A stretch of 32,000 bases of DNA. Origin: Erysipelothrix larvae (GTDB lineage: Bacteria; Bacillota_I; Bacilli_A; Erysipelotrichales; Erysipelotrichaceae). The stretch spans positions 240,001-272,000 of the forward strand of contig NZ_CP013213.1 in NCBI RefSeq assembly GCF_001545095.1. Reading direction: 5' to 3'. Shown one piece after another: positions 6,956 through 31,422 of the stretch. The position numbers and the translations under genes were made by a program. Below the pieces are notes generated by a model that was given only the letters and a program-made list of their open reading frames with translations, ran no database searches and was not told where the DNA came from. Each line of letters starts with the position of its first letter. Position 1 is the stretch's first letter.

Positions 6956-7690
6956 ATGACGAATACTGAGTATGGACATTTGCTTAGCAACTTTGAATAT
7001 CTTAAATTTATAGGGATTCAGAATCATACAGAAGAAACAATTGATTTTGTAAACAACTTCAGGTATACAGATGTCCAAGGCTTAATAAAAATGACAGACT
7101 ATGAGGAGTGGTATCGTGAAGCCAATATAATAAAGGCGACGGTGATAGTTGGAGGATTCCCACACTTTAAGGGATTGGATGACTTTGACTTTCAAGAAAA
7201 TATTAATAAAGATCAAATTATTGATTTCATAACGCATCGCTTTATCCACGAGAATCGGAACATTGCATTCATGGGTTCTAGTGGTGCAGGGAAAACGCAC
7301 TTAGCAGCGTCGAATGGTATTTTATTTGCCAAAAAGCAGGAATCGCATACTACATTAAATGTCACGCACTTATCACTCAATTGAAGAAAGCAAAGCTGGA
7401 AAACAGATTTGAAGCAGAATCAAACGTTTCGTGAAATACAAATGTCTATTCATCGACAAGATTGGTTACTTGCTCTTCAATGCAGCGAATTTATAGATGT
7501 TATTCCAACTGGTCGATAAGTATCACGCGTCAGAGTCAACAATCTTCACCACAAACATGAATTTCTCAAAATGGGAAGATGTATTTAGTAATCCGACAAT
7601 CGCTCATTCAACATTTGTCCGTGTTCTTCGCCACGCTCATGTGTCTATATCGCAGGAAAATCATGTAAGTTTTAGGATTATTATGATGAG
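6956..7690 (+). pseudogene. istB: IS21-family IstB helper ATPase remnant (frameshifts plus an in-frame TAG)
   Basis: Walker A GSSGAGKTHLA lies in the first frame. LITQLKKAKLENRFEAE, LFIDKIGY (degenerate Walker B) and MLFQLVDKYHASESTIFTTNMNFSKWEDVFSNPTIAHSTFVRVLRHAHV lie in other frames. There is a TAG at 7494-7496. No IstA transposase lies upstream. Confidence 0.8.
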
Positions 7691-7805
7691 AATGGAGGCG
7701 CAGATCAATTGCACATACTACATACTAATGTTGACAGGTATAGCTAAGTTAATCTTGTATGTTACCAAACTCCTTATCATAATTATACCTAAAGGGGGGC
7801 ATCGA

Positions 7806-8087
7806 ATGAAAAAAAGAATAATACTCAAGTTATCATTGGTCTTAATTTCAGTTTTGGTTATTTCAAGAACAGCAGAACTTATTGACTGTAATAGGCTTTC
7901 AAAAATGAAACCTCCATTACTTGCGATAAATACAAGGAATAATACGAATGTAGGATTGGGTTATACAATACAATTCGATCCCCTTTATCCCCACCAAATA
8001 ACAGGGGTGGTTCTATGGGGAGGGGATCAGAATAGAATCAGTGATCCATATTACGCATATTGTTTATGCTATTATAATTTTAAATAG
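7806..8087 (+). CDS. Small secreted or membrane-anchored hypothetical protein
   Basis: 93 aa from ATG 7806 with an AAAGGGGGG Shine-Dalgarno and an N-terminal hydrophobic signal/anchor (MKKRIILKLSLVLISVLVI). The ORF-track call 7497-8087 is a run-through from the IstB remnant. Confidence 0.45.
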   Translation: MKKRIILKLSLVLISVLVISRTAELIDCNRLSKMKPPLLAINTRNNTNVGLGYTIQFDPLYPHQITGVVLWGGDQNRISDPYYAYCLCYYNFK

Positions 8088-19538: not shown

Positions 19539-19764
19539 GAGGTGTCATACTACTGGAAATTAGGCCTAATACACGCATTAAATATTTATAACATAACGCT
19601 TGAAAATGGCGATAATTTTGGTGAAGTGGGAATGGGTAATGAAAGTTAACTAAAACATTATAACAATATGTATGGTATTTTTTTGAGTACTCAAATATAT
19701 AAGAAATCTATGACCATACTAATGTTAAATAATTATTTTAAAACGATACAAAAATTTTTTTATC

Positions 19765-19773
19765 TGCTAGAAT
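19765..19773 (+). promoter_or_regulatory. Extended -10 promoter of capsule locus 1
   Basis: TGCTAGAAT, with GATACA 17 nt upstream as a weak -35. The identical ATCTGCTAGAATTT recurs at 30348-30361. Confidence 0.6.
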
Positions 19774-19795
19774 TTTCATGTAATCAAATATGTTT

Positions 19796-19833
19796 ATGTG
19801 GCAATGGGGGAATTTTCATTGGGGTAGTGCCAT
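19796..19833 (+). promoter_or_regulatory. Conserved leader hairpin with an ops-like GGGGTAGTG
   Basis: ATGTGGCAATGGGGGAATTTTCATTGGGGTAGTGCCAT. The stem GTGGCA/TGCCAT encloses a G-rich loop. It is nearly identical to 30383-30419 and lies the same 23 nt from the -10 element. Confidence 0.6.
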
Positions 19834-19910
19834 AGAACTCATAAAGAGTGATTCTTTATCATTTACACGCTGTGAGATACTTATACGGCGTTCTTTATAC
19901 TACTCATAAA

Positions 19911-19996
19911 ACGTGATTCTACCTGGAAGGTGTTGATTGATATAATGCGTCCTGCATTTTTATCAAATCCTGGCCACTTAAGAATCGCGTTTTTTG
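19911..19996 (+). terminator. Leader-internal terminator-like structure (candidate attenuator)
   Basis: ACGTGATTCT (19911-19920) pairs with AGAATCGCGT (19981-19990) over 10 bp with one G-U pair, followed by a T-run. The loop holds an AATGC-gtcct-GCATT hairpin. Confidence 0.5.
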
Positions 19997-20092
19997 CTTA
20001 TGAAATATTACGAAACCTGTGAGAGTGGTTAGTCATAACAATACGAGATTATTGAAGGATTCTCATTGTCACAATGAGAGTAGGAGGAAAGT

Positions 20093-20815
20093 GTGGAACC
20101 AACTAGAGATTTATTGACAGATCAAGAAGATGATTTGAGTTTTGTGGAATTATACGAAGCCATCAAAAAGAAGATGATACTGATTTTGATCGTTGGACTT
20201 ATATGTGGGGGATGTGCATTTGGGTTTGCATCGGTGTTCATTCGCCCGATTTACGAAAGCAGTGCAATTTTGATTGTGAACAATCGAAGGGATGAATCAA
20301 ATCAAGCAATTACTTACGATGAAATTACATCAGCACAAAATCTAGCACCTGTCTATAGCATAATAATCAAAAGTAATATCGTCATGGGAAGACTCATCGA
20401 GAACTTGTCATTGGATATGACAACCAATGAATTAGCGTCCAAAGTGACCGTATCAGCAATTGATAAAACACAGGTTATTAATGTTGCAGTAAGGGATGAG
20501 AATCCAAACAATGCATTACTTTACATACAAGAAATTGTTGAAGTTGCACCTGAAATAATAGTAGAACTCGTTGAAGCAGGTTCGGTTGGCGTAGCATCTA
20601 TTCCACAGCTTCCGATTAATCCAGTATCACCAAACGTAAAAATGATTACAATTATGGCGTTTGTTTTTGGTGTGATGATATCAATTGGGGTTGTTCTATT
20701 AGGTCATATCTTAGACAGAACCTATCGGTTACCAGAACCTCTGGAGAAAGAACTGGGGATTCCAGTTATTGGAATAATTCCAAATTTTGAACAAGTAAGT
20801 CGAGGATTACGTTGA
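20093..20815 (+). CDS. Wzz/CpsC/CapA-like polysaccharide chain-length determinant (BY-kinase transmembrane modulator)
   Basis: 240 aa with two TM helices flanking an extracytoplasmic domain and the C-terminal VIGIIPNF kinase-activating tail. GTG start 5 nt after AGGAGG. Confidence 0.9.
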   Translation: MEPTRDLLTDQEDDLSFVELYEAIKKKMILILIVGLICGGCAFGFASVFIRPIYESSAILIVNNRRDESNQAITYDEITSAQNLAPVYSIIIKSNIVMGRLIENLSLDMTTNELASKVTVSAIDKTQVINVAVRDENPNNALLYIQEIVEVAPEIIVELVEAGSVGVASIPQLPINPVSPNVKMITIMAFVFGVMISIGVVLLGHILDRTYRLPEPLEKELGIPVIGIIPNFEQVSRGLR

Positions 20816-21540
20816 TGTTTAGGAAGAAAGTTAAGAAAAATAAACTGAATATTTTTGAAGGGACTCATATAATTCATGATGAATCTCCCTTCGCATATTT
20901 AGAAGGATATAAATCGTTGCGTACTAATTTAAGTTTTTTAACTTATGGCGGAGAAGTAAAAACGATTCTAGTTACAAGCAGTGTAGCACATGAAGGAAAG
21001 AGTACAATTGCGATAAACTTGGCACGCTCTTTAGCAATGGCCGGAAACTATGTGTTGTTAATTGATGGGGACTTAAGAGCACCAGTAATTCAAAAGTATC
21101 TGAAAATCACAAACAACATCAACAATGGACTATCTTCTGTACTTGCAAATAAGATTCCAGCAGAAGAAGCAATCTACAAGTATCCAGCAATGGAAATTGA
21201 AATTATGTTTTCGGGACCCATCCCTCCAAATGCGGTTGAACTGTTATCGAAAGGACGTGCTAAGCGACTTATTGGTGAATTAAGAGAACGATACGATTAC
21301 ATTATCATTGATTCTCCGCCTTCAGGTATCGTCACAGATGCAAAGGTATTGTCCCAAAGTGTGGATGGACTTCTGTATGTTGTTCGCCAAAACTTTGCTG
21401 AGAAAGATCTAATCAAAAGAACAACAAAAGATTATATAGCATCTGGTACGAACATTTTAGGAGTAGTCTTTAATAATTTCACACAAGATAACTTTGCGCG
21501 TAAGCGTAAGTTTAACAATTACTACTCAAGTGAAGACTAG
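20812..21540 (+). CDS. CpsD/CapB/YwqD-like tyrosine-protein kinase (BY-kinase)
   Basis: Walker A HEGKST, Walker A' LLIDGDLR and Walker B IIIDSPP. The C-terminal tail has only two tyrosines (NNYYSSED). Overlaps the modulator stop. Confidence 0.9.
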   Translation: MMFRKKVKKNKLNIFEGTHIIHDESPFAYLEGYKSLRTNLSFLTYGGEVKTILVTSSVAHEGKSTIAINLARSLAMAGNYVLLIDGDLRAPVIQKYLKITNNINNGLSSVLANKIPAEEAIYKYPAMEIEIMFSGPIPPNAVELLSKGRAKRLIGELRERYDYIIIDSPPSGIVTDAKVLSQSVDGLLYVVRQNFAEKDLIKRTTKDYIASGTNILGVVFNNFTQDNFARKRKFNNYYSSED

Positions 21541-21560
21541 CGTGATGACTTAAAAAAGAA

Positions 21561-21779
21561 ATGATCATAGAGACTAAAACACACATTATGGTAGATCAAT
21601 AAATCGAGATATATATATCAAAAGACCATGTTGAAAAAAATTGCACTGCATGGATAGGCGATGGGTGATAGCCCAAACAAGCACTTTGAAACTATAAGGA
21701 AGAACGTTGATTTCCCGGGTTATATCTTTTTGATTTAAAGATTATGACTCCCGTAAAGCATGTTCACATTAAGCGTTAA
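21561..21779 (+). pseudogene. Heavily eroded remnant of a PHP-family phosphotyrosine phosphatase (CpsB/CapC)
   Basis: Short collinear matches in different frames: MIIETKTHIM (cf. MIDIHSHI), HFETIRKNV, GYIFLI and TPVKHVHIKR (cf. TPVIAHIERY). The 370-nt gap is about half the length of an intact gene and full of stops. Confidence 0.4.
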
Positions 21780-21911
21780 TCTGGTCAGTATGGAAGGGGA
21801 AAAATACTGATACAGTGAAAAAAATAAGAGTTTTGAAATGTGCATTCCATGATGAAACCCTTATAAAGTGAAAGAATATTTGGAAGTTATTATTAAAGGT
21901 GGAACTAAAAA

Positions 21912-23771
21912 ATGAAGTACAAAATTATAACAACGATCATATTGGGGATTGATTTACTGACTGTATGGTTTGGATACATTCTTTCCTATTGGATACACAC
22001 AGATAGCTCAGTTACATTTTCAATTGCACTTGATGACATGCTTCGTGTTACACCCTATCTATTACTCATCTATTTCGTAGCATTCGCTATGTTACGGTTA
22101 TATCATACATTGTTAAGAGATGTCAGTGTTAATGTAGGCGTTAACATTGTAATTGCAACGATCATCGCTACTGCCTCGACAATTCTATTGCGTGAATATA
22201 CAGCAATCATAAGAAGCTTACCGATGAACACGATACTCATAAGTTTCTTTGTCATCACGTTGATAATGGAACTGAATCATTTTCATTATCGAATACTCTC
22301 AATTTATAAGCGCAAAATCATTGTTCGCTCGTTTCAAGAGAGAATTGTAATTTATGGGGCAGGTAATGCAGGAAGATTAGCGCTAAAAGAGTTGCAGACC
22401 AATGACAAATATCAATATCGAATCATTGGATTTATCGACGACGACCCTCAACTCAAAGGTTTAACAATTAAAGGAGTACCAGTGTTAGGAGACGGATCCA
22501 TGTTGGGGGACATTGTGAAAAGACATCGCGTTGATCATGTAATCATCGCGATCCAAAGGACCAATCCAAAACAAAGGAAACAAGTTATCAATAAAGTGCT
22601 GGATACTGGTGTCGTAAATGTGTCCCTGATGTCTTCACTTAGTCTTGATAAGCCACATGCGCAAGCTTCACCAATTCGTAAGATTGAAATACACGATTTA
22701 CTTAATCGAGATGTAGTTCATCTTGATACCGATCATATAAAGGAATGCTTATTTGAACAATCGATTCTAGTGACTGGAGCGGGGGGCTCCATAGGTAGTG
22801 AACTCGTACGGCAAATCGTTAAGTATAACCCAAAAAGTATTGTCCTTTATGACATCAATGAAAGTGGATTATATCACATTGAACAAGAATTATTATTTGA
22901 CCAAAGACAGGGAAATATTCAAGAAGGAATTGAAATCGTCGCAATCGTTGGATCAATCAACGATAAAGAGAAACTGAGAAAAATATTTGCAAGACATGGA
23001 TGTAATCAAGTGTTCCATGCAGCAGCATACAAACATGTTCCACTCATGGAACGGACACCAAGGGAAGCGATTAATAATAATATTTTTGGAACAAAAATGC
23101 TCATTGACGTAAGCATAGAATTTAATGTAAAAACTTTTGTGAATATATCAACGGATAAAGCAGTTAACCCAACAAATGTAATGGGAGCCACCAAGCGTTT
23201 TGTGGAAATGATGATACATAGTGAAACGTGCATGAAGTCAAAGACGCGCTTTGTGGCAGTTCGATTTGGGAATGTCTTAGGTTCAAATGGATCTGTGATT
23301 CCGCTCTTTCAAAAGCAAATTGAACAAGGGGGTCCAGTTACGGTTACCGATCCAAACATCGTCCGATACTTCATGACAATTCCAGAAGCCGTTAACCTTG
23401 TTCTAGAAGCATCAACCCTTGCTAAAGGGGGAGAAATCTTTGTTCTAGATATGGGGAAACCTGTGAAAATTAAAGATTTAGCAGAAAAAATGATTCAGTT
23501 ATCAGGATATGAACTAAACAAAGACATCCAAATTAAATTTGTTGGTTTAAGACCGGGGGAGAAATTATATGAAGAGCTTCTTATGGATGAAGAGGGGCTC
23601 AGACGAACTGCAAATGATTTGATTTTTATCGCACAACCACAAGTTTGGGAAGATGAAGTCATCGAAAAATATCTTCAAATATTAAAAAATGCAACGATGT
23701 ACTGTGAGCCAAGGGAGATAAAACACGCATTACAATCCGTTGTAAGGACCTATGTATTTGAAGAAAGATAA
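21912..23771 (+). CDS. Membrane-anchored CapD/PglF/WbpM-like UDP-HexNAc 4,6-dehydratase
   Basis: 619 aa with four N-terminal TM helices and two Rossmann regions (IYGAGNAG and VTGAGGSIGSEL). FHAAAYKHVPLME is typical of the family. Confidence 0.9.
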   Translation: MKYKIITTIILGIDLLTVWFGYILSYWIHTDSSVTFSIALDDMLRVTPYLLLIYFVAFAMLRLYHTLLRDVSVNVGVNIVIATIIATASTILLREYTAIIRSLPMNTILISFFVITLIMELNHFHYRILSIYKRKIIVRSFQERIVIYGAGNAGRLALKELQTNDKYQYRIIGFIDDDPQLKGLTIKGVPVLGDGSMLGDIVKRHRVDHVIIAIQRTNPKQRKQVINKVLDTGVVNVSLMSSLSLDKPHAQASPIRKIEIHDLLNRDVVHLDTDHIKECLFEQSILVTGAGGSIGSELVRQIVKYNPKSIVLYDINESGLYHIEQELLFDQRQGNIQEGIEIVAIVGSINDKEKLRKIFARHGCNQVFHAAAYKHVPLMERTPREAINNNIFGTKMLIDVSIEFNVKTFVNISTDKAVNPTNVMGATKRFVEMMIHSETCMKSKTRFVAVRFGNVLGSNGSVIPLFQKQIEQGGPVTVTDPNIVRYFMTIPEAVNLVLEASTLAKGGEIFVLDMGKPVKIKDLAEKMIQLSGYELNKDIQIKFVGLRPGEKLYEELLMDEEGLRRTANDLIFIAQPQVWEDEVIEKYLQILKNATMYCEPREIKHALQSVVRTYVFEER

Positions 23772-24393
23772 TCATGAAGGGAATTTGTATAAAGGTATGA
23801 ACTATTTAGTTTTGAAGCGTTTGATGGATATTAATATTTCGGTACTGGGACTCATCATCTTATTCCCAATTATGGCGCTTGTTGCAGCAGCAATCAAGCT
23901 GGATTCTGATGGAACCATCTTGTTTAAGCAAAAAAGACTCGGAAAACACAAGAAAGAATTTTACATTTTGAAGTTTAGAACGATGACGACGAATACTCCA
24001 GATAATGTACCAACAGACCAACTCCAAAATTCACACATGCTTATTACACGCGTTGGTGCATTCTTGAGAAAAACCAGTCTTGATGAACTGCCACAATTGA
24101 TCAACATAATTAAGGGTGATATGTCAATTATCGGTCCACGCCCGCAGTTGCCAAACCAAATTGAACTCACTCAATTGCGTGATGATGTGAGTGCATTTGA
24201 TGTCTGTCCTAGGTTAACAGGACTTGCCCAAATTAGCGGAAGGGATGAACTGTCAAATGACCAAAAAGCGTGGTTTGATGGGCAATATGTTACCAATATA
24301 GGTCTTAAAATGGACGTGGTGTGTTTTATACGAACAATTTTTAAAGTAATTAGTAGTGATGGAGTTGTTGAAGGAAAAAAGAATCATAAGTAA
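23752..24393 (+). CDS. Initiating undecaprenyl-phosphate sugar-phosphate transferase (PglC/CapM-type small bacterial sugar transferase)
   Basis: One N-terminal TM helix, KFRTM, and the hallmark LDELPQLINIIKGDMSIIGPRP. The start is ambiguous (23752 or ATG 23797). Confidence 0.88.
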   Translation: MYLKKDNHEGNLYKGMNYLVLKRLMDINISVLGLIILFPIMALVAAAIKLDSDGTILFKQKRLGKHKKEFYILKFRTMTTNTPDNVPTDQLQNSHMLITRVGAFLRKTSLDELPQLINIIKGDMSIIGPRPQLPNQIELTQLRDDVSAFDVCPRLTGLAQISGRDELSNDQKAWFDGQYVTNIGLKMDVVCFIRTIFKVISSDGVVEGKKNHK

Positions 24394-24435
24394 TTGAATT
24401 AATTAACGCAACTGGATTAATAGATGGAGGATCGT

Positions 24436-25296
24436 ATGATAAATATTTTAATCACAGGTTCAAATAGTTATATTGGTAGGCAATTAGAATTATGGTTAAA
24501 CAAAACGAAACACAATTATAGTATTACACGCATTTCATTACGGAATGGCACATGGAAAACGATGGATTTCTCAAAGTACGATGTTATTTATCATGCAGCA
24601 GGAATCGCACATATCAAAGAAACAAAGGCGAACAGCGATCTCTATCAAAAGGTAAATCGTGACTTGAGTTTTCAAGTTGCACTTAAAGCAAAAAAAGAGA
24701 AGGTTCATCAGTTTATCTTTCTAAGCTCAATGAGTGTGTATGGCACAAAACAAGAAATAATTACCCTTGATACATTTCCAAATCCAGAAACTTATTACGG
24801 ACTCTCAAAACTGCATGCGGAGCAGTTGCTTGAATCTCTCTCAGATGAATCATTCAAAGTTGCAATATTGCGCCTTCCGATGGTGTATGGTTTGAACAGT
24901 AAAGGTAATTTTACAAAACTAAAGAACTTTGTATGTAAGTGCCCGATTTTTCCATATATTAACAACCAAAGAAGCATGATTTACATTGATAATGTGTCTG
25001 AAATCAGCAAACAAATTATTGATGACCAGAGTTCTGGAGTGTTTTATCCACAAAATAATGAGTATGTCGACACGGGAAATCTAGTTAAATTAATTGGCCG
25101 CTATTATGGTAAACCCATTATTTTGTCAAAGGGATTTGCAGTTTTACTTAGAGCAATGAAACTCCCAATGGTAAAGAAATTGACGGGAAATCTGGTCTAT
25201 GACAAAAGTATGTCTGAGTATAAACGTGAATATAGGGTATGTAATCTTGAAGAGTCAATTCAAGAAATCTCAAATCAGGAAATGAAGAAAACATAA
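24436..25296 (+). CDS. NAD-dependent epimerase/reductase (CapN-like SDR)
   Basis: ILITGSNSYIGRQL nucleotide-binding motif and catalytic YGLSK. ATG 24436 lies 5 nt after GGAGG. Confidence 0.85.
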   Translation: MINILITGSNSYIGRQLELWLNKTKHNYSITRISLRNGTWKTMDFSKYDVIYHAAGIAHIKETKANSDLYQKVNRDLSFQVALKAKKEKVHQFIFLSSMSVYGTKQEIITLDTFPNPETYYGLSKLHAEQLLESLSDESFKVAILRLPMVYGLNSKGNFTKLKNFVCKCPIFPYINNQRSMIYIDNVSEISKQIIDDQSSGVFYPQNNEYVDTGNLVKLIGRYYGKPIILSKGFAVLLRAMKLPMVKKLTGNLVYDKSMSEYKREYRVCNLEESIQEISNQEMKKT

Positions 25297-25322
25297 ATCA
25301 TGTTAAATAGAAAGAGAAAAAT

Positions 25323-26450
25323 ATGAAGAAAGTAATGTTTGTAGCAACGGTTGTGAAGCGGCATATTGCGGCATTTCATCTTCCGTACCTCGAATGGTTT
25401 AAAAACAATGGGTATGAAGTTCATGTTTGTGCCCAAAACGATTATGAAAACGCTGATGATTGTATCATTCCACACTGTGATGTGTTTCATGAACTTCCGT
25501 TTGAACGCAATCCATTCAGGACAGGGAATTTTCAAGCGTATAAGGCGATAAAGAGACTTGTGGATACAACACATTTTGACATTATACATTGCCACACCCC
25601 TGTTGGTGGAACGGTAACTCGGCTCGCATCTCGCAGTGCTCGAAAACATGGAACAAAACTCATTTATACTGCACATGGTTTCCACTTTTATAAAGGGGCC
25701 CGGTTGCTGAATTGGATTCTCTTTTACTCAATCGAAAGATGGCTTTCCAGGTATACAGACCTCTTAATCACTATAAACCAAGAGGATTATTTACGTGCAC
25801 TTCGTTTTAAAGCAAAGAAGGTCAGCTTTACAAATGGTGTAGGGGTTAATCTTGATGCTATAAATGGTATTACAATTGATCGAAATGAAAAACGGAAGGC
25901 ATTAAACATTCCTCACGATGCGTTTTGCATCTTATCAGTCGGAGAATTAAGCACAAATAAGAATCATCGCATAATCATTGAAGCAATGTCGCGCATAGAA
26001 TCGAAGCAATTTCACTATATAGTTTGTGGTGCTGGGCCCTTAGAATCAACACTTCTTGAGTTGTCGAGTGAAATGGGGGTTTCTGAGCGTATTCATCTCC
26101 TTGGGTATCGAAATGATGTCATTGAAATTGTGAAAGCATCCGATGTATTTGTACTTCCTTCAATCCGTGAGGGACTGTCTGTTGCATTGATGGAAGCAAT
26201 GGCAGAAGGATTACCCGTTGTTGTGTCAGGATGCAGAGGGAATGTTGATCTTGTGAATCATGGACATAATGGATTTGTTGTTCGCAATAACAACAGTCAT
26301 GAGTATGCTCAAGCAATCATGCGTATTCAAAAGTCATCGGAAGTACAGTCAAAGTTTATGAAAAACAGTAAATCAAAAATTCAATGTTATTCGCTCAATA
26401 ATGTTATGGAAGAAATGTCAAAGCTCTACAGTGAGGTAATGGGTTCTTGA
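25323..26450 (+). CDS. GT4-family glycosyltransferase (CapM-type-1-like subgroup)
   Basis: 375 aa with N-terminal VATVVKRHIAAFHLPY and C-terminal EGLSVALMEAMAEGLPVV (E-x7-E). Confidence 0.88.
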   Translation: MKKVMFVATVVKRHIAAFHLPYLEWFKNNGYEVHVCAQNDYENADDCIIPHCDVFHELPFERNPFRTGNFQAYKAIKRLVDTTHFDIIHCHTPVGGTVTRLASRSARKHGTKLIYTAHGFHFYKGARLLNWILFYSIERWLSRYTDLLITINQEDYLRALRFKAKKVSFTNGVGVNLDAINGITIDRNEKRKALNIPHDAFCILSVGELSTNKNHRIIIEAMSRIESKQFHYIVCGAGPLESTLLELSSEMGVSERIHLLGYRNDVIEIVKASDVFVLPSIREGLSVALMEAMAEGLPVVVSGCRGNVDLVNHGHNGFVVRNNNSHEYAQAIMRIQKSSEVQSKFMKNSKSKIQCYSLNNVMEEMSKLYSEVMGS

Positions 26451-26535
26451 TCAACAATTAATCGTATAAAGAGCATGCGTTTTTATAAAATGACGCACAT
26501 AATCACAGCATATTTAGTTAAGGGGGGAGTCTCAT

Positions 26536-27693
26536 ATGAGATGTTTATTTGTTCATGATCATGAGTTTGTATTGAAAGAATCGAAAATCTATTCTTCAGG
26601 GGTATTATCAAATAATGTATTTGATCGTTATCTTCGGTGGTGTTCGACCTTGAAAATAATGGCTCGCTGTAAAATAGCAGAAGAAAACGGTGGCTTGCCT
26701 TTGGATGAATCAAGTCGTGTGAAGAATGTTTCGTTTGAACCATTACCAAACTTTTGGAGAATACAAACAATTGGCAGTGCAATTCGACGCATCAAGCAAT
26801 CTGTCAAAGGGAGTGATTCAATTATTGTTCAATTACCCAGTATCTACGGTATCATTGCTGCACACTATGCCATAAAATATAAAAAACCACTGATGGTAGA
26901 AGTTGTTGGTGATGCTCACGATGCATTTAGGTTTCATGGTAAAATCGGTAAGATACTTGCACCATACCTTTCATATTTTACACGTTGTGTTGTGAAAAAG
27001 GCTGATTATGTGCGATACGTAACACAAAAATATCTCCAAGAACGGTATCCTTCGATTGGGAAGACTGCAGGATATTCTGATGTGAATTTAGATAATATGA
27101 ATCAATCGGTTCTGACAAATCGTATTAAGAAAATAAATGAAAGCAACCTTTCACATCTTATATTAGGGACCATTGGACCTATAGATATTAAATACAAGGG
27201 ACAACACTATGTGATCAAAGCATTAGGACAACTAAAGCGACAAGGGTATGAGTTTGAATACTATCTTGTGGGGAAAGGGGATAATACCTATCTCAAAAAA
27301 ATTGCCACACAAGAAGGTGTCATTGATAAATTACATTTTTTGGGTGTTTTGAATCGCAAAGAAATTGTGAGATTTTTGAATAAAATTGATCTTTATATTC
27401 AACCAAGTCAAACTGAAGGACTGCCGCGAGCGCTTATAGAAGCAATGAATCAGGGGTGCCCAGTATTTGGTTCGAACGTCGGAGGGATTCCGGAATTAAT
27501 TGAGGGTGAAAACACATTTAATGTCGGAGATGTGAATCACATTTCAAGCATTTTAAGTTCACTTAAAAAGGCATCATTGACTTATATGGCATCAGAGAAT
27601 TTTATACACAGCAAACACTTTTATCCAGAAATTCTCAAGACTAAAGACGAGGCATTCTTTAAAGCCTTCTTTTTAGGAGAGAATTATGATTAA
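26536..27693 (+). CDS. GT4-family glycosyltransferase
   Basis: 385 aa with TEGLPRALIEAMNQGCPVFGSNVGGIPE. AAGGGGGGAG Shine-Dalgarno. Confidence 0.85.
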   Translation: MRCLFVHDHEFVLKESKIYSSGVLSNNVFDRYLRWCSTLKIMARCKIAEENGGLPLDESSRVKNVSFEPLPNFWRIQTIGSAIRRIKQSVKGSDSIIVQLPSIYGIIAAHYAIKYKKPLMVEVVGDAHDAFRFHGKIGKILAPYLSYFTRCVVKKADYVRYVTQKYLQERYPSIGKTAGYSDVNLDNMNQSVLTNRIKKINESNLSHLILGTIGPIDIKYKGQHYVIKALGQLKRQGYEFEYYLVGKGDNTYLKKIATQEGVIDKLHFLGVLNRKEIVRFLNKIDLYIQPSQTEGLPRALIEAMNQGCPVFGSNVGGIPELIEGENTFNVGDVNHISSILSSLKKASLTYMASENFIHSKHFYPEILKTKDEAFFKAFFLGENYD

Positions 27694-28786
27694 AGTACTT
27701 CATGTCGTATCAGATCTTGGAAGTGGTGGTGTTGAATCGCTTTTGTATACATACTATAAATACTTAAATCGAAAGCAGATTTGCTTCGATTTTATCGTTC
27801 ATGAGCCATCAACTGGGATGTTAGAAAAAGAATTAAAAGCATTGGGTTCTAAGATTTATCATGTGACGCCAAAGAAGAAATCACTGATCAAGAACTTCAC
27901 GGAAATACGGAATATTATTAACTATGGAAATTATGATGTCGTGCATAGTCATCTAAATCTTGCGAGTGTAGTACCACTTTATCTTGCAAAAAAAGCGCAG
28001 GTTGGTATAAGGATTAATCACTCTCATAGTGTTAATAGACAGCAGTCAATTCAAAAAACGATGATTTACGAGGTCCTTAAAAAACTAAATCATAATCTTG
28101 CGAGTCATTACTTTGCTGCATCTTGTGATGCAGGAACATGGTTGCATGGGATTGATTGGAAACCTACATCACAAAACCTTTTAGTGAGCAGTGTTATTGA
28201 TTTAAATCAGTTTATCTTTAGAAAAACTTGGCGAGATGAACTTAGACGTAATCTGAATCTTCGTAATAAGATCATCCTACTTCATGTAGGAAGGTTCTCT
28301 AGTGAAAAAAACCACCCGTTCTTAATCGATATCATAGAAAGGTTGGATGATCGATTTGCATTATTGCTTGTGGGAGATGGTGCCACAAGACCTTCGATTG
28401 AAGCGTTGGTAAAGCAAAAGAAGCTTGACAAACGTGTTCACTTTGTGGGAACGACACACAATGTTGGTCAATATATGAGTGCTTCTGATATATTCTTACT
28501 TCCGTCGATTCATGAGGGATTTGGAATCGTGCTTGTTGAAGCACAAGCAAGTGATCTTCCCATATTCGCTTCGAATACAATTCCAAGAGAAAGTGAAATC
28601 ACTGAACTCATAGAGTTTCTTCCAATTGATTCCGTAGATCATTGGGTGGATGGAATAATGAAGACGAACATTAAGCATAGAATATCAAGAAAAAAAGATT
28701 TGGAATCAGCCGGGTATACGCTTGAGGGCAAAGTAAAGGAGTTTGAAACATGGCTGAAACGCAATGTTCACAATAATCATGAATAA
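27686..28786 (+). CDS. GT4-family glycosyltransferase (EpsF-like)
   Basis: 366 aa with GSGGVES near the N-terminus and EGFGIVLVEAQASDLPIF. Overlaps the previous gene by 8 nt. Confidence 0.85.
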   Translation: MIKVLHVVSDLGSGGVESLLYTYYKYLNRKQICFDFIVHEPSTGMLEKELKALGSKIYHVTPKKKSLIKNFTEIRNIINYGNYDVVHSHLNLASVVPLYLAKKAQVGIRINHSHSVNRQQSIQKTMIYEVLKKLNHNLASHYFAASCDAGTWLHGIDWKPTSQNLLVSSVIDLNQFIFRKTWRDELRRNLNLRNKIILLHVGRFSSEKNHPFLIDIIERLDDRFALLLVGDGATRPSIEALVKQKKLDKRVHFVGTTHNVGQYMSASDIFLLPSIHEGFGIVLVEAQASDLPIFASNTIPRESEITELIEFLPIDSVDHWVDGIMKTNIKHRISRKKDLESAGYTLEGKVKEFETWLKRNVHNNHE

Positions 28787-28809
28787 TAGAGAGGAAATGA
28801 CTGCTTCTG

Positions 28810-29874
28810 ATGACTATATATGGAATTAATCTCATATTGATAGGAATCAATGCGTTTATCTTTCGGCTGATTACATTGAATCATCAGAGTGATACCAAAC
28901 GAAAAAAGATAAAAAAAGTGATGATTGGCTTGATTACCTTTCAATTAATACTTATATTAGCGATTAGGGATGACTTAATTGGGGTTGATGTTAAGGTATA
29001 CTTAGATTTTTTTGAATCAGCACGATCTACGACGTTATCTGTACTTCTTGAAAATCGATTTGAAAATGGGTACATCATATTGAATAAACTAATCAGTGTT
29101 CTCTTTCCTGATAATCAGATATTTCTGACAATAATAGCACTGATCTGTCTTATTCCAGTTGGGGTCTTTATCTACAGATATTCGCGATATCCAACTATGA
29201 GTTTTTTGTTATATATTGCATTTGAGTACTATTCATTTGTTTTCTCAGGACTTCGACAATCCATTGCATATGCGATTATACTTACAAGTTATACGTTTAT
29301 TCGACAACGGAAATTAGTGTCATTTCTTTTACTTATATTCTTTGCATCGTTATTTCATCGATCTGCTCTAATCTTCGTTTTTGCATACTTTATACACACA
29401 ATCCATCTTAAAAAAATAACGGTTATTGCACTGCTTGGACTAAACTTATTGCTTTTTATACTTCGAGTACCCTTATATACCTGGGTATCTCAGAGTTTCT
29501 ACAGTAGTTATGAGGTAGTAGAAAGTGCTGCGTATAATCGATTAATCTTTAGTACAGTTATTTTGATTGGTTGCTTCACACGCTATCGATATGCAATACA
29601 GTATAGTAAACATACAATTGGGCTCTATAATTATGTAATTCTTGGATGTTCGATGATGATGTTTGCGTCTGTAGGAACTAACGTGATGCGAATCGTAGAC
29701 TATTACTATATCTTCATTATTGTTTTGGTTCCTGAAGTGATTTATTCTCTTAAAGATTATAAAGTGAAGGTATTGATTAACTATGGTGTGATGATATTGA
29801 TGCTTTCCATCTATATCGTGTTCATGCAAGTCGATGGTTTTGAAATCGTTCCGTTTCGTTTTTTTTGGCCATAA
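28810..29874 (+). CDS. EpsG-family polysaccharide polymerase (Wzy-like)
   Basis: 354 aa, polytopic, with the EpsG-type GLRQSIAYAIIL ... FHRSALIF region. Confidence 0.75.
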   Translation: MTIYGINLILIGINAFIFRLITLNHQSDTKRKKIKKVMIGLITFQLILILAIRDDLIGVDVKVYLDFFESARSTTLSVLLENRFENGYIILNKLISVLFPDNQIFLTIIALICLIPVGVFIYRYSRYPTMSFLLYIAFEYYSFVFSGLRQSIAYAIILTSYTFIRQRKLVSFLLLIFFASLFHRSALIFVFAYFIHTIHLKKITVIALLGLNLLLFILRVPLYTWVSQSFYSSYEVVESAAYNRLIFSTVILIGCFTRYRYAIQYSKHTIGLYNYVILGCSMMMFASVGTNVMRIVDYYYIFIIVLVPEVIYSLKDYKVKVLINYGVMILMLSIYIVFMQVDGFEIVPFRFFWP

Positions 29875-29898: not shown

Positions 29899-29947
29899 AA
29901 CCTCTTCCTATTACACTGATACCAAAGTGTTGGGGGAGGTTTTTTTG
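29899..29947 (+). terminator. Rho-independent terminator closing capsule locus 1
   Basis: AACCTCTTCC pairs with GGGGGAGGTT across a ~23-nt loop and is followed by T7. Confidence 0.7.
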
Positions 29948-30351
29948 TAAAAGAAGAAGATAACTTATGTATTGAAGAATAAACGGGTTGAAAATAAATG
30001 TAGCCAATAATGTGATTTGAGATTAATGAAATTAATAACTAACAGCGAAAAAAGACATTTATAGCAAAATGGATTGGAATATAATACGATCAAATGATGA
30101 ATAGGATTCGTTAGAAAAAATGAATTTCGTTTGACATGAATGATTTCTATATCAAACCAAAGATTGATTGGGGAAGACGATATTAACTATAATTATCACA
30201 CATTTTCGCTTATTAAGTGTTTAATGGGTTATTATTTTTTAATTCAGAATTTAGATAAATAGTCGTTCTATATCAAATTGATTGACTTAACATTCAGTTT
30301 CATGCAGCAGATTTCTATTTTTTTGAGAGCGTGGTAAAAAAAATACAAATC

Positions 30352-30360
30352 TGCTAGAAT
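30352..30360 (+). promoter_or_regulatory. Extended -10 promoter of capsule locus 2
   Basis: TGCTAGAAT, within the same ATCTGCTAGAATTT block as locus 1. Confidence 0.6.
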
Positions 30361-30382
30361 TTAGAGGTAATCTTATAAGTTG

Positions 30383-30419
30383 ATGTGGCAATGGGTGGAA
30401 TTCCAAGGGGTAGTGCCAT
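30383..30419 (+). promoter_or_regulatory. Second copy of the conserved leader hairpin with GGGGTAGTG
   Basis: ATGTGGCAATGGGTGGAATTCCAAGGGGTAGTGCCAT, 23 nt downstream of the -10 element as in locus 1. Confidence 0.6.
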
Positions 30420-30496
30420 TTAATTCTTTTATTGTATCTTTAAGTTTTTTAAAGTGTTTTTACATATTATTGAGCGGATTATTTACTACTCTTACA

Positions 30497-30577
30497 GCGG
30501 GATTCTTAAAATTAGTCTATATGCGTGAATGTTCATTCACAAAGCATAACAGTCTACTTAAGAAATCTCGCTTTTTT
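30497..30577 (+). terminator. Leader-internal terminator-like structure, copy 2
   Basis: GCGGGATTCTT (30497-30507) pairs with AAGAAATCTCGC (30560-30571) with one bulge, followed by T6. The loop holds a nested TATGC/GCATA and GTGAAT/ATTCAC hairpin. Confidence 0.5.
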
Positions 30578-30696
30578 AGTTTTTTTATCGCGATGTATCT
30601 TAGGTATGCCTGTGAAGAACACTAATTATATTGTCCTTCATATCAAAGGTTTGAAAGAGAGTTGCCATAGTTTCATTATGGAAACGGGAGGTAAAT

Positions 30697-31422
30697 GTGG
30701 AACCTAAGAATAACATAAAAATGAATCAGGAAGAAGAAATAAGCATTGTTGATCTTTTGGGGGTAATCCGATCAAAACTTGTGCAAATTGCAATTGTGGG
30801 GGTTGCGTTTGCATTGTTTGCTTATATATTTTCTGTATTCTTTATTAATCCGGTATACGAAAGTAATGCGGTACTTATTGTAACCAACCGAAAAGATTCT
30901 GGAGGAAGTTCAATTACGAATGATGAAATTACATCTGCCAAGAATCTTGCATCAGTTTATAGCATTATCATCAAGAGTAATAACGTGATGGGAAATGTGG
31001 TGAATAATTTGTCGCTTGACATTACACCAGAGTCACTTGCAAAGAAAGTCACTGTTTCTGCAGTAGATAGTACACAAGTAATCCGTGTGTCTGTGCGTGA
31101 TACTGATAAAAAGGCAGCACTTCGCTATACTCAAGAAATAGTGAATGTCGCACCAGATATAATTGTAGAACTTGTAGGTGCTGGTTCAGTGGGAGTTGTA
31201 TCAACACCACAGTTGCCAACATCTCCGGTCTCACCTAATGTTCGTATGAATACATTAGTTGCTTTTGTATTGGGGCTAGCACTTAGTATCGGAATCGTTC
31301 TAATTAAGCACTTCTTAGATCGAACATATAAAATCCCTGAAAATGTTGAAGAAGAGTTGGGATTTCCAGTTATTGGTATTATTCCCAATTTTGAAGATGC
31401 AAGCCGAGGTATGAGAAAATGA
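30697..31422 (+). CDS. Wzz/CpsC/CapA-like modulator, paralogue of 20093-20815
   Basis: 241 aa with the same architecture and C-terminal VIGIIPNF tail. GTG start after GGGAGG. Confidence 0.9.
   Translation: MEPKNNIKMNQEEEISIVDLLGVIRSKLVQIAIVGVAFALFAYIFSVFFINPVYESNAVLIVTNRKDSGGSSITNDEITSAKNLASVYSIIIKSNNVMGNVVNNLSLDITPESLAKKVTVSAVDSTQVIRVSVRDTDKKAALRYTQEIVNVAPDIIVELVGAGSVGVVSTPQLPTSPVSPNVRMNTLVAFVLGLALSIGIVLIKHFLDRTYKIPENVEEELGFPVIGIIPNFEDASRGMRK

Follow-up and report, generated by a model that had tools for sequence, protein, structure and literature searches.

Is entry into the capsule operons of Erysipelothrix larvae checked by a transcription terminator inside their leaders, and is that check relieved by antitermination? 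The question is raised by a 32,000-nucleotide (nt) stretch of contig NZ_CP013213.1 of this species, called the window below and numbered from its first base, in which a nine-gene polysaccharide operon of 9.8 kb with a promoter of its own (cps1, 20093-29874) is followed by a second cluster of like design that begins at 30697 (cps2). The two are paralogous cpsC-cpsD-capD operons in tandem, and each is headed by an untranslated leader of ~310-330 nt, referred to as leaders 1 and 2. A preliminary description had pointed to a terminator-like stem and T-run in leader 1, kept by compensatory changes in leader 2, as a candidate antitermination checkpoint. Our analysis indicates that the leader hairpins are a real feature and almost certainly a selected one. 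As judged from sequence comparison and predicted folds, they most likely form a default intrinsic terminator ahead of each cps operon, i.e. a leader attenuator, within a new and narrowly distributed structured leader. That this checkpoint is relieved by antitermination is plausible from the predicted pairings, and unproven.

Operons for capsules and exopolysaccharides are long and costly, and their elongation is controlled in several phyla, e.g. by RfaH/ops, UpxY/opsX, LoaP and EAR. To our knowledge no such elongation control has been described for the Erysipelotrichia, which include the animal pathogen Erysipelothrix rhusiopathiae, where the capsule is a virulence factor. If the leaders carry a regulated checkpoint, it would give a handle on how E. 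larvae chooses between its two tandem capsule loci, and it would represent a new attenuator architecture, a long terminator enclosed by a helix of the 5' end with the region of the ribosome-binding site. If the hairpins act as a constitutive dampener only, they would be an ordinary feature of a single species.

Terminator-like hairpins in the two capsule leaders

Each leader carries one long hairpin that ends on a T-run, placed between a promoter-like sequence and the start codon of cpsC as follows.

19765-19773, forward strand: extended -10 element TGCTAGAAT of leader 1 (sequence match only), within the 14-nt block ATCTGCTAGAATTT
19911-19995, forward strand: hairpin of leader 1, with the 5' arm at 19911-19920, the apical hairpin at 19921-19980, the 3' arm at 19981-19990 and T6 at 19990-19995
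20083-20095, forward strand: Shine-Dalgarno sequence GGAGG and GTG start of cpsC1 (Wzz family)
30352-30360, forward strand: extended -10 element TGCTAGAAT of leader 2 (sequence match)
30497-30586, forward strand: hairpin of leader 2 (30497-30571), T6 (30572-30577) and a second run, T7 (30580-30586)
30687-30699, forward strand: Shine-Dalgarno sequence GGAGG and GTG start of cpsC2 (identical to E. larvae AOC36_01320)

In leader 1 the arm ACGTGATTCT (19911-19920) pairs with AGAATCGCGT (19981-19990). The arms of leader 2 are GCGGGATTCTT (30497-30507) and AAGAAATCTCGC (30560-30571), with T6, AG and T7 downstream. The arm positions, arm sequences and T-runs given for both leaders in the preliminary description are exact to the base, its inner hairpins (AAUGC/GCAUU in leader 1, UAUGC/GCAUA with GUGAAU/AUUCAC in leader 2) are present in the predicted folds, and its distances hold as well, the hairpin of leader 1 lying ~138 nt from TGCTAGAAT and 97 nt from the GTG start. 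RNAfold predicts a single unbranched hairpin in each case, of 80 nt with 26 pairs and -26.5 kcal/mol followed by U6 in leader 1, and of 75 nt with 29 pairs and -24.4 kcal/mol followed by U6, AG and U7 in leader 2. None of 500 shuffled sequences was equally stable (z-scores -4.7 and -5.8, respectively), and both hairpins are present in the minimum-energy fold of the whole leader. We also folded the RNA upstream of every run of at least 5 T on both strands of the window. Among the 193 hairpins obtained the two leader hairpins rank 4th-6th; two of the three ranked above them are branched, and the third lies within a coding region.

The base of the stem has the form expected of an intrinsic terminator. 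Its pairs are A-U, C-G, G-C, U.G and G-C in leader 1 and G-C, C-G, G-C, G.U and G-C in leader 2, so that three and four of the five bottom pairs, respectively, are G-C, and in both leaders the stem abuts U6. Such a G+C-rich bottom touching the U-tract provides the geometry needed for termination, and both leaders have a stable G+C-rich stem set directly on a U-tract of at least 5 nt.

The two leaders have kept this stem while the coding DNA behind them diverged to saturation. The genes cpsC1 and cpsC2 are 61% identical at the DNA level and 37% identical at third codon positions. Leaders 1 and 2 share exact runs of 14, 13, 13, 9 and 8 nt, the block ATCTGCTAGAATTT being the identical 14-nt run. 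Given this saturation at silent sites, the blocks shared by the leaders, the base of the stem among them, are evidently under selection. Eight of the 10 shared pairs of the basal stem are identical, one A-U has become G-C and one U.G has become G.U, and leader 2 has one additional bulged A. Although their apical 50-60 nt defy alignment (identity in 29 of 65 columns), both leaders form a hairpin there. The cognate arm duplexes have -12.3 and -10.8 kcal/mol. Of the two mixed duplexes, that of the leader 1 5' arm and the leader 2 3' arm is weak (-4.4 kcal/mol), and the reverse combination pairs well (-11.0 kcal/mol). The proposed compensatory changes are thus borne out for two double changes with pairing kept, whereas the other eight pairs are invariant and the comparison is one of two paralogues of one genome. 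The conserved stem has the look expected of a terminator under structural selection, but the covarying pairs number just two, from two paralogues of one genome. Another E. larvae strain (SRR6161627) has a leader 2 identical to that of the window, and its leader 1 differs by T19979G (L015, position 2887) in an internal loop of the hairpin.

The leader in other genomes and its predicted long-range pairings

The leader is narrowly distributed. Contigs were retrieved for 12 CpsC homologues, and among these look-ups the leader is carried only by P0001 and P0003, which come from the other E. larvae strain and have near-identical leaders, and by P0004. The last is represented by four mutually identical metagenomic loci (L016-L019) in the Logan assemblies ERR12379733-39, with a CpsC at 55% identity, and is called X here. 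The leader is absent from contigs L001, L020-L025, L027-L030 and L034-L043 of CpsC homologues. Patterns taken from the most conserved block gave chance matches only. An exact-pattern scan (GGCAATGGG-N5-20-GGGGTAGTGCC) of 185,579 species genomes, a collection that does not include the E. larvae genome, gave 13 matches, all in unrelated phyla, about as many as expected from the information content of the pattern, and several of them appear to fall in coding sequence. A degenerate pattern gave three matches in the JGI metagenomes, all in apparent coding regions, and BLAST of the leader against plasmids and phages gave no match. Pattern matches with the same 39-nt span were seen in four loci of Opitutae (Verrucomicrobiota; L002, L003, L013 and L014). 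In L002, L013 and L014 they are nearly one GC-rich stretch (GGGAGATGTGGCAATGGG..GGGGTAGTGCCGGGTAC), apparently part of a conserved coding sequence and unrelated to the leader. E. larvae has a third Wzz-kinase-phosphatase capsule locus (AOC36_08745; L001, 2570-3000), whose 430-nt upstream region is without the 5' box described below and without a leader terminator, so that the leader is specific to the two tandem clusters.

X keeps the 5' box (GUUGAUGUGACAAAGGG, L016 2663-2679), the sequence of the terminator 5' arm (ACGCGAUUCUU, also ACGCGATTCTT), a CCUGUGA box, the ribosome-binding context AACGG(G)AGG and the GTG start. The preliminary description had named loss of the pairing from orthologous leaders as a result that would speak against the checkpoint, and X goes part of the way: opposite the retained ACGCGATTCTT it has only AGAAU (AGAAT in the DNA) of the 3' arm, then UUUAAGAUUUUAU and a poor U-tract. 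That the 5' arm sequence is kept in X without its partner suggests a second role for this arm. An alignment of the three leaders with RNAalifold was uninformative because MAFFT misaligns X around the terminator. The E. larvae leaders contain the following further elements.

19792-19808, forward strand: 5' box GTTTATGTGGCAATGGG, pairing locally (P1, 19797-19803 with 19828-19834) or with the anti-box at 20062-20078
19809-19829, forward strand: G-rich interior of the 5' element, with GGAAUU (19809-19814) complementary to the terminator 5' arm and GGGUAGUG (19822-19829) complementary to UACUACUC
19898-19905, forward strand: ACTACTC box, separated by 5 nt from the terminator 5' arm that follows and paired with GGGGUAGU in the minimum-energy fold
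20059-20081, forward strand: hairpin just upstream of the Shine-Dalgarno sequence (UUCUCAUUGU-CAC-ACAAUGAGAG, z -3.1), whose 5' half is the anti-box 20062-20078
30379-30395, forward strand: 5' box GTTGATGTGGCAATGGG of leader 2, with local P1 (30385-30390 with 30414-30419)
30397-30415, forward strand: GGAAUUCC, pairing with the 5' arm GGGAUUCU, and AGGGGUAGUG, pairing with UUACUACUCU
30484-30493, forward strand: ACTACTC box region of leader 2
30661-30675, forward strand: anti-box GUUGCCAUAGUUUCA of leader 2, forming 12 pairs with the 5' box

The 17-nt box, with the consensus GUUKAUGUGRCAAWGGG over the three leaders, is the most conserved element of the leader and lies within ~12 nt of the likely transcript start. 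A weak local hairpin (P1) can form between it and UGCCAU in E. larvae or GUCACA in X, with covariation at position R10 (G-C versus A-U). All three leaders further contain, between the terminator and the ribosome-binding site, an anti-box complementary to the 17-nt box, with the following pairings.

Leader 1: 19793-19808 with 20062-20078, 16 pairs, -16.7 kcal/mol, none of 2000 shuffles as good
Leader 2: 30381-30392 with 30661-30675, 12 pairs, -12.1 kcal/mol, shuffle p 0.1
X: L016 2663-2678 with 2934-2950, 15 pairs, -13.4 kcal/mol, shuffle p 0.01

All three variable positions of the box covary with their partners (U.G/G-C/G-C, G.U/G-C/A-U and U-A/U.G/A-U). The predicted long-range helix encloses the terminator, and apart from the terminator itself we regard it as the best-supported structure of the leader. 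The anti-box of leaders 1 and 2 doubles as the 5' half of a stable hairpin before the ribosome-binding site (z about -3); the local fold of leader 2 has its UUGCC paired with the Shine-Dalgarno GG and the UAA that follows.

A candidate antiterminator appears when the nascent RNA is folded up to, and excluding, the 3' arm of the terminator. In each of the three leaders the 5' element then captures the terminator 5' arm. The E. larvae leaders have two contacts, one between GGAAUU(CC) in the loop of the 5' element and (GG)GAUUCU of the 5' arm, the other between the adjacent GGGGUAGU and the ACUACUC box, which is perfectly conserved and precedes the arm by 5 nt; this second helix is present in the minimum-energy fold of both E. 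larvae leaders. The equivalent helix in X is GGGGUGUU:AACACCCC, located 6 nt upstream of the 5' arm, while the box itself covers ACGCGAU there. A direct pairing of the 5' box with the terminator 5' arm was considered too and set aside, the complementarity being found in L016 only.

We propose, tentatively and as a possibility we rate somewhat below an even chance, that the conserved 5' element forms a cis-acting antiterminator. In this model the hairpin and T-run of each leader would be an intrinsic terminator, factor-independent or assisted by NusA, and would serve to attenuate transcription. The nascent leader would by default fold into the stable 75-80-nt hairpin before the U-tract, most polymerases would stop, and a leader RNA of ~200 nt would be released. 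Read-through into cpsC-cpsD-capD and the downstream genes would require the conserved 5' element, whose GGAAUU(CC) and GGGGUAGU would pair with the adjoining GAUUCU of the 5' arm and with the ACUACUC box, respectively, to form an antiterminator helix stabilised by some protein or ligand. In the read-through transcripts the 17-nt box would then pair with the anti-box beside the Shine-Dalgarno sequence and close the whole leader, and this closing helix would probably protect the 5' end or adjust translation.

A bolder speculation could be that the leaders represent a new family of Erysipelothrix capsule-operon RNAs. In such RNAs the box would switch among the local hairpin, the antiterminator contact and a closing helix of 15-16 base pairs (bp), and thereby couple the read-through decision to 5'-end protection or translation under the control of a ligand or protein, and a terminated leader might also serve as a small RNA that acts on the other cps locus. 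We regard this extended version as unlikely.

Competing explanations and known systems

Several results weigh against a cis-antiterminated leader attenuator. The hairpins are not compact: a stem of ~5-14 bp with a loop of 3-8 nt is not seen, the 75-80 nt being interrupted by several internal loops, and they are far longer than the terminators of typical attenuators. A standard terminator scan that allows loops of 3-8 nt misses both leader sites, since it treats the folded apical region as a loop that is too long. The intrinsic terminator of the preliminary description is supported by its G+C-rich stem base on a T-run, its position in a long leader behind an extended -10 and ahead of a 9.8-kb operon, and its duplication with the structure kept. 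Only three independent leader sequences are known, two of them paralogues in one genome, and a comparative base of this size is too small for statistics. In X no hairpin near the homologous site approaches those of E. larvae and there is no convincing terminator, so the terminator is not demonstrably conserved outside this species. The predicted antiterminator duplexes are each borderline when compared with shuffles, at -13.3 kcal/mol in leader 1 (p 0.055), -18.7 kcal/mol in leader 2 (p 0.026) and -16.9 kcal/mol in X (p 0.068). X uses a different part of the 5' element than E. larvae, and its 5' element pairs worse than shuffles with the E. larvae targets. The local P1 hairpin is not more stable than shuffles. 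Finally, the terminator is 6-13 kcal/mol more stable than the candidate antiterminator, so termination should be the default and read-through would need a stabilising factor; none was found in the window, and it must be postulated.

The other mechanisms that we considered each account for a part of these data. Processive antitermination, which the preliminary description had put forward, would involve a NusG paralogue of the LoaP, RfaH or UpxY type encoded in trans and recruited by the 5' box or hairpin, or a 5' element acting like EAR or put RNA, and the polymerase would then resist both the leader terminator and pause or termination sites further along the 10-kb operon. The setting is the classic one for it, a conserved element that precedes the leader terminator of a long polysaccharide operon, and the sequence of the 5' element is conserved beyond the needs of pairing (13-17 nt identical), which points to a factor that recognises it. 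LoaP itself requires no more than a small hairpin in the leader and a large NusA-dependent terminator (PMC12691694). However, no internal terminators that would demand processivity were detected in the operon, and genes such as loaP and upxY normally adjoin their targets (PMC11685472), whereas Pfam scans of the open reading frames (ORFs) of the 32-kb window gave no NGN, KOW (NusG paralogue), CAT-RBD or ANTAR domain and no other antiterminator gene. The leaders do not have the expected signals either. No UNCG hairpin flanked by at least three pairs, the LoaP recognition element being a UNCG-tetraloop hairpin (PMC12691694), is present in the three leaders, and no ops-type 12-mer (GGCGGTAGnnTG, or YGCGNAGCR with a preceding pause hairpin) matches the E. 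larvae leaders within 3 mismatches. A search of the window against Rfam 15 gave no riboswitch or leader family at the gathering score, and at permissive thresholds (E up to 10) only noise from snoRNA, CRISPR-repeat, miRNA and preQ1 models at E values of at least 0.2. Neither an antitermination factor nor a riboswitch came to light in these searches, and we consider factor-driven processive antitermination unlikely. An equally doubtful account, in our opinion, is that each hairpin is a constitutive partial terminator that stops a fixed fraction of the polymerases and sets a low basal cps level, at the same time generating a stable leader RNA of ~200 nt whose box may act in trans on both anti-boxes, with no switch. 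The hairpin is indeed thermodynamically dominant over every alternative pairing found, and the product would carry the seed-like box, a hairpin and a U-tail, with a complementary site beside each Shine-Dalgarno sequence. Yet position 4 of the box covaries with its own anti-box (U.G in leader 1, G-C in leader 2), which favours action in cis over cross-talk, and the conserved ACUACUC and GGAAUU contacts near the 5' arm would be left unexplained.

The hairpin and the 15-16-bp stalk of box and anti-box could also be processing or stability structures, i.e. sites of the RNase III type or 5' stabilisers, with a T-run that is incidental in an A+T-rich genome. Such a role would fit hairpins of 26-29 bp, unlike those of usual attenuator terminators, a box:anti-box helix that closes the whole leader beside the Shine-Dalgarno sequence in all three leaders, and the retention in X of the box, anti-box and 5' arm sequence but not of the terminator. 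Both E. larvae hairpins, however, end exactly at T6 with a G+C-rich base, and this recurs despite their divergent interior, so we give the explanation a small probability. Far smaller still is that of leader-peptide attenuation, in which a ribosome on an upstream ORF (uORF) starting in the 5' box halts 2 nt before the terminator 5' arm and masks it. A uORF of leader 1 (19790-19909, MFMWQWGNFHWG...) does end directly before the 5' arm at 19911, and that of leader 2 (30380-30625) runs through the terminator. But neither E. larvae leader offers a Shine-Dalgarno sequence at a usable distance, the frames and peptides diverge after the fourth shared residue through a 1-nt indel, the same ATG in X is directly followed by TGA, and the box is conserved at all three codon positions.

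The leaders resemble several known systems without matching any of them. EAR, a cis RNA of operons of the epsA(Wzz)-epsB(kinase)-epsC(CapD) type, reportedly promotes terminator read-through (Irnov and Winkler, 2010), and in Bacillales, e.g. in the eps operon of B. subtilis, this structured RNA of ~120 nt is internal to the operon, placed after the kinase gene and before the CapD-like gene. The cps element is located in the 5' leader instead and has no match to EAR in sequence or model. The corresponding position of cps1, a 371-nt gap between cpsD1 and capD1 (21541-21911), is not more stable than shuffles (z -0.32) and has no Rfam match; the gap is ~94 nt in cps2 and absent in X. The T-box, BglG/LicT-RAT, PyrR and riboswitch platforms follow the logic proposed for the cps leaders, in which upstream RNA can sequester the 5' arm of a terminator in the leader. 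They have a short stem-loop, however, where the cps leaders have a terminator hairpin of 75-80 nt, and they lack the additional helix that joins the 5' end to the vicinity of the Shine-Dalgarno sequence. A large ligand-binding aptamer is made less likely by the lack of conservation between the 5' element and the terminator.

A conserved leader element before capsule or lipopolysaccharide (LPS) operons that controls elongation is also the hallmark of RfaH/ops (JUMPStart) and of Bacteroides UpxY/opsX. Those systems work through a pause and the non-template DNA and not by means of a terminator in the leader. The sequence GGGGTAGTGCC faintly recalls the ops core GCGGTAGC (PMC11685472), but its GGTAG is not kept in X and no NusG paralogue is encoded at the locus. 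The LoaP leaders of the Bacillus velezensis dfn and mln operons are similar: in front of a very long biosynthetic operon of a Firmicute they place a small conserved RNA element and, downstream of it, a large intrinsic terminator (PMC12691694), and loaP genes also adjoin polysaccharide clusters in Firmicutes. The cps leaders differ in the absence of the UNCG-tetraloop hairpin, and of a loaP-like gene near the operons in the window, and in their 5' element, a box of 17 nt that has a G-rich loop and pairs over long distances. The bipartite conAn system is a further example of processive antitermination with an RNA component in Gram-positive bacteria (PMC8191782). It occurs on conjugative elements and has a dedicated protein gene, and nothing in the window is comparable to it.

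The operons and minor elements of the leaders

The second Wzz-family gene (30697-31419) is 100% identical to AOC36_01320 of E. larvae, and the further close protein matches of the window are likewise to this species. The cps1 operon encodes CpsC/Wzz, a CpsD tyrosine-kinase ATPase, a CapD-like dehydratase, a priming sugar transferase, an epimerase, three GT4 glycosyltransferases and an EpsG-like polymerase. It has a terminator of its own at 29899-29946 (AACCTC, a loop of 31 nt, GAGGTT, then T7), which the simple scanner also misses owing to the long loop, and terminators with long loops may be common in the E. larvae genome.

Two further conserved elements were noted around the leaders. A 12-nt block (TATTTTTTTGAG) occurs upstream of both promoters, at ~19676-19687 and ~30316-30327, i.e. 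~85 and ~30 nt from the -10 element. The other is a heptamer downstream of the terminator region.

20016-20022, forward strand: CCTGTGA box of leader 1
30609-30615, forward strand: CCTGTGA box of leader 2

This heptamer is found in all three leaders (L016, 2875-2881 in X) at a variable distance from the terminator region, and no conserved pairing partner or promoter-like context was found for it in them. A second promoter at this site was set aside because its hexamers are poor. Other readings of the leader motifs were set aside as well. A sigma-54 promoter would have the TGGCA that is present, but there is no TTGC at the correct spacing; a DNA operator built of TGGCA/TGCCA half-sites is disfavoured by their variable spacing (21, 22 and 27 nt), which favours RNA; and a k-turn or C/D-box is disfavoured by the absence of GAUG in leader 1.

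Elsewhere in the window, two ORFs at 6956-7384 and 7497-8087 match the N- and C-terminal parts of an IstB ATPase of the IS21 family, and the pair looks like a disrupted insertion sequence.

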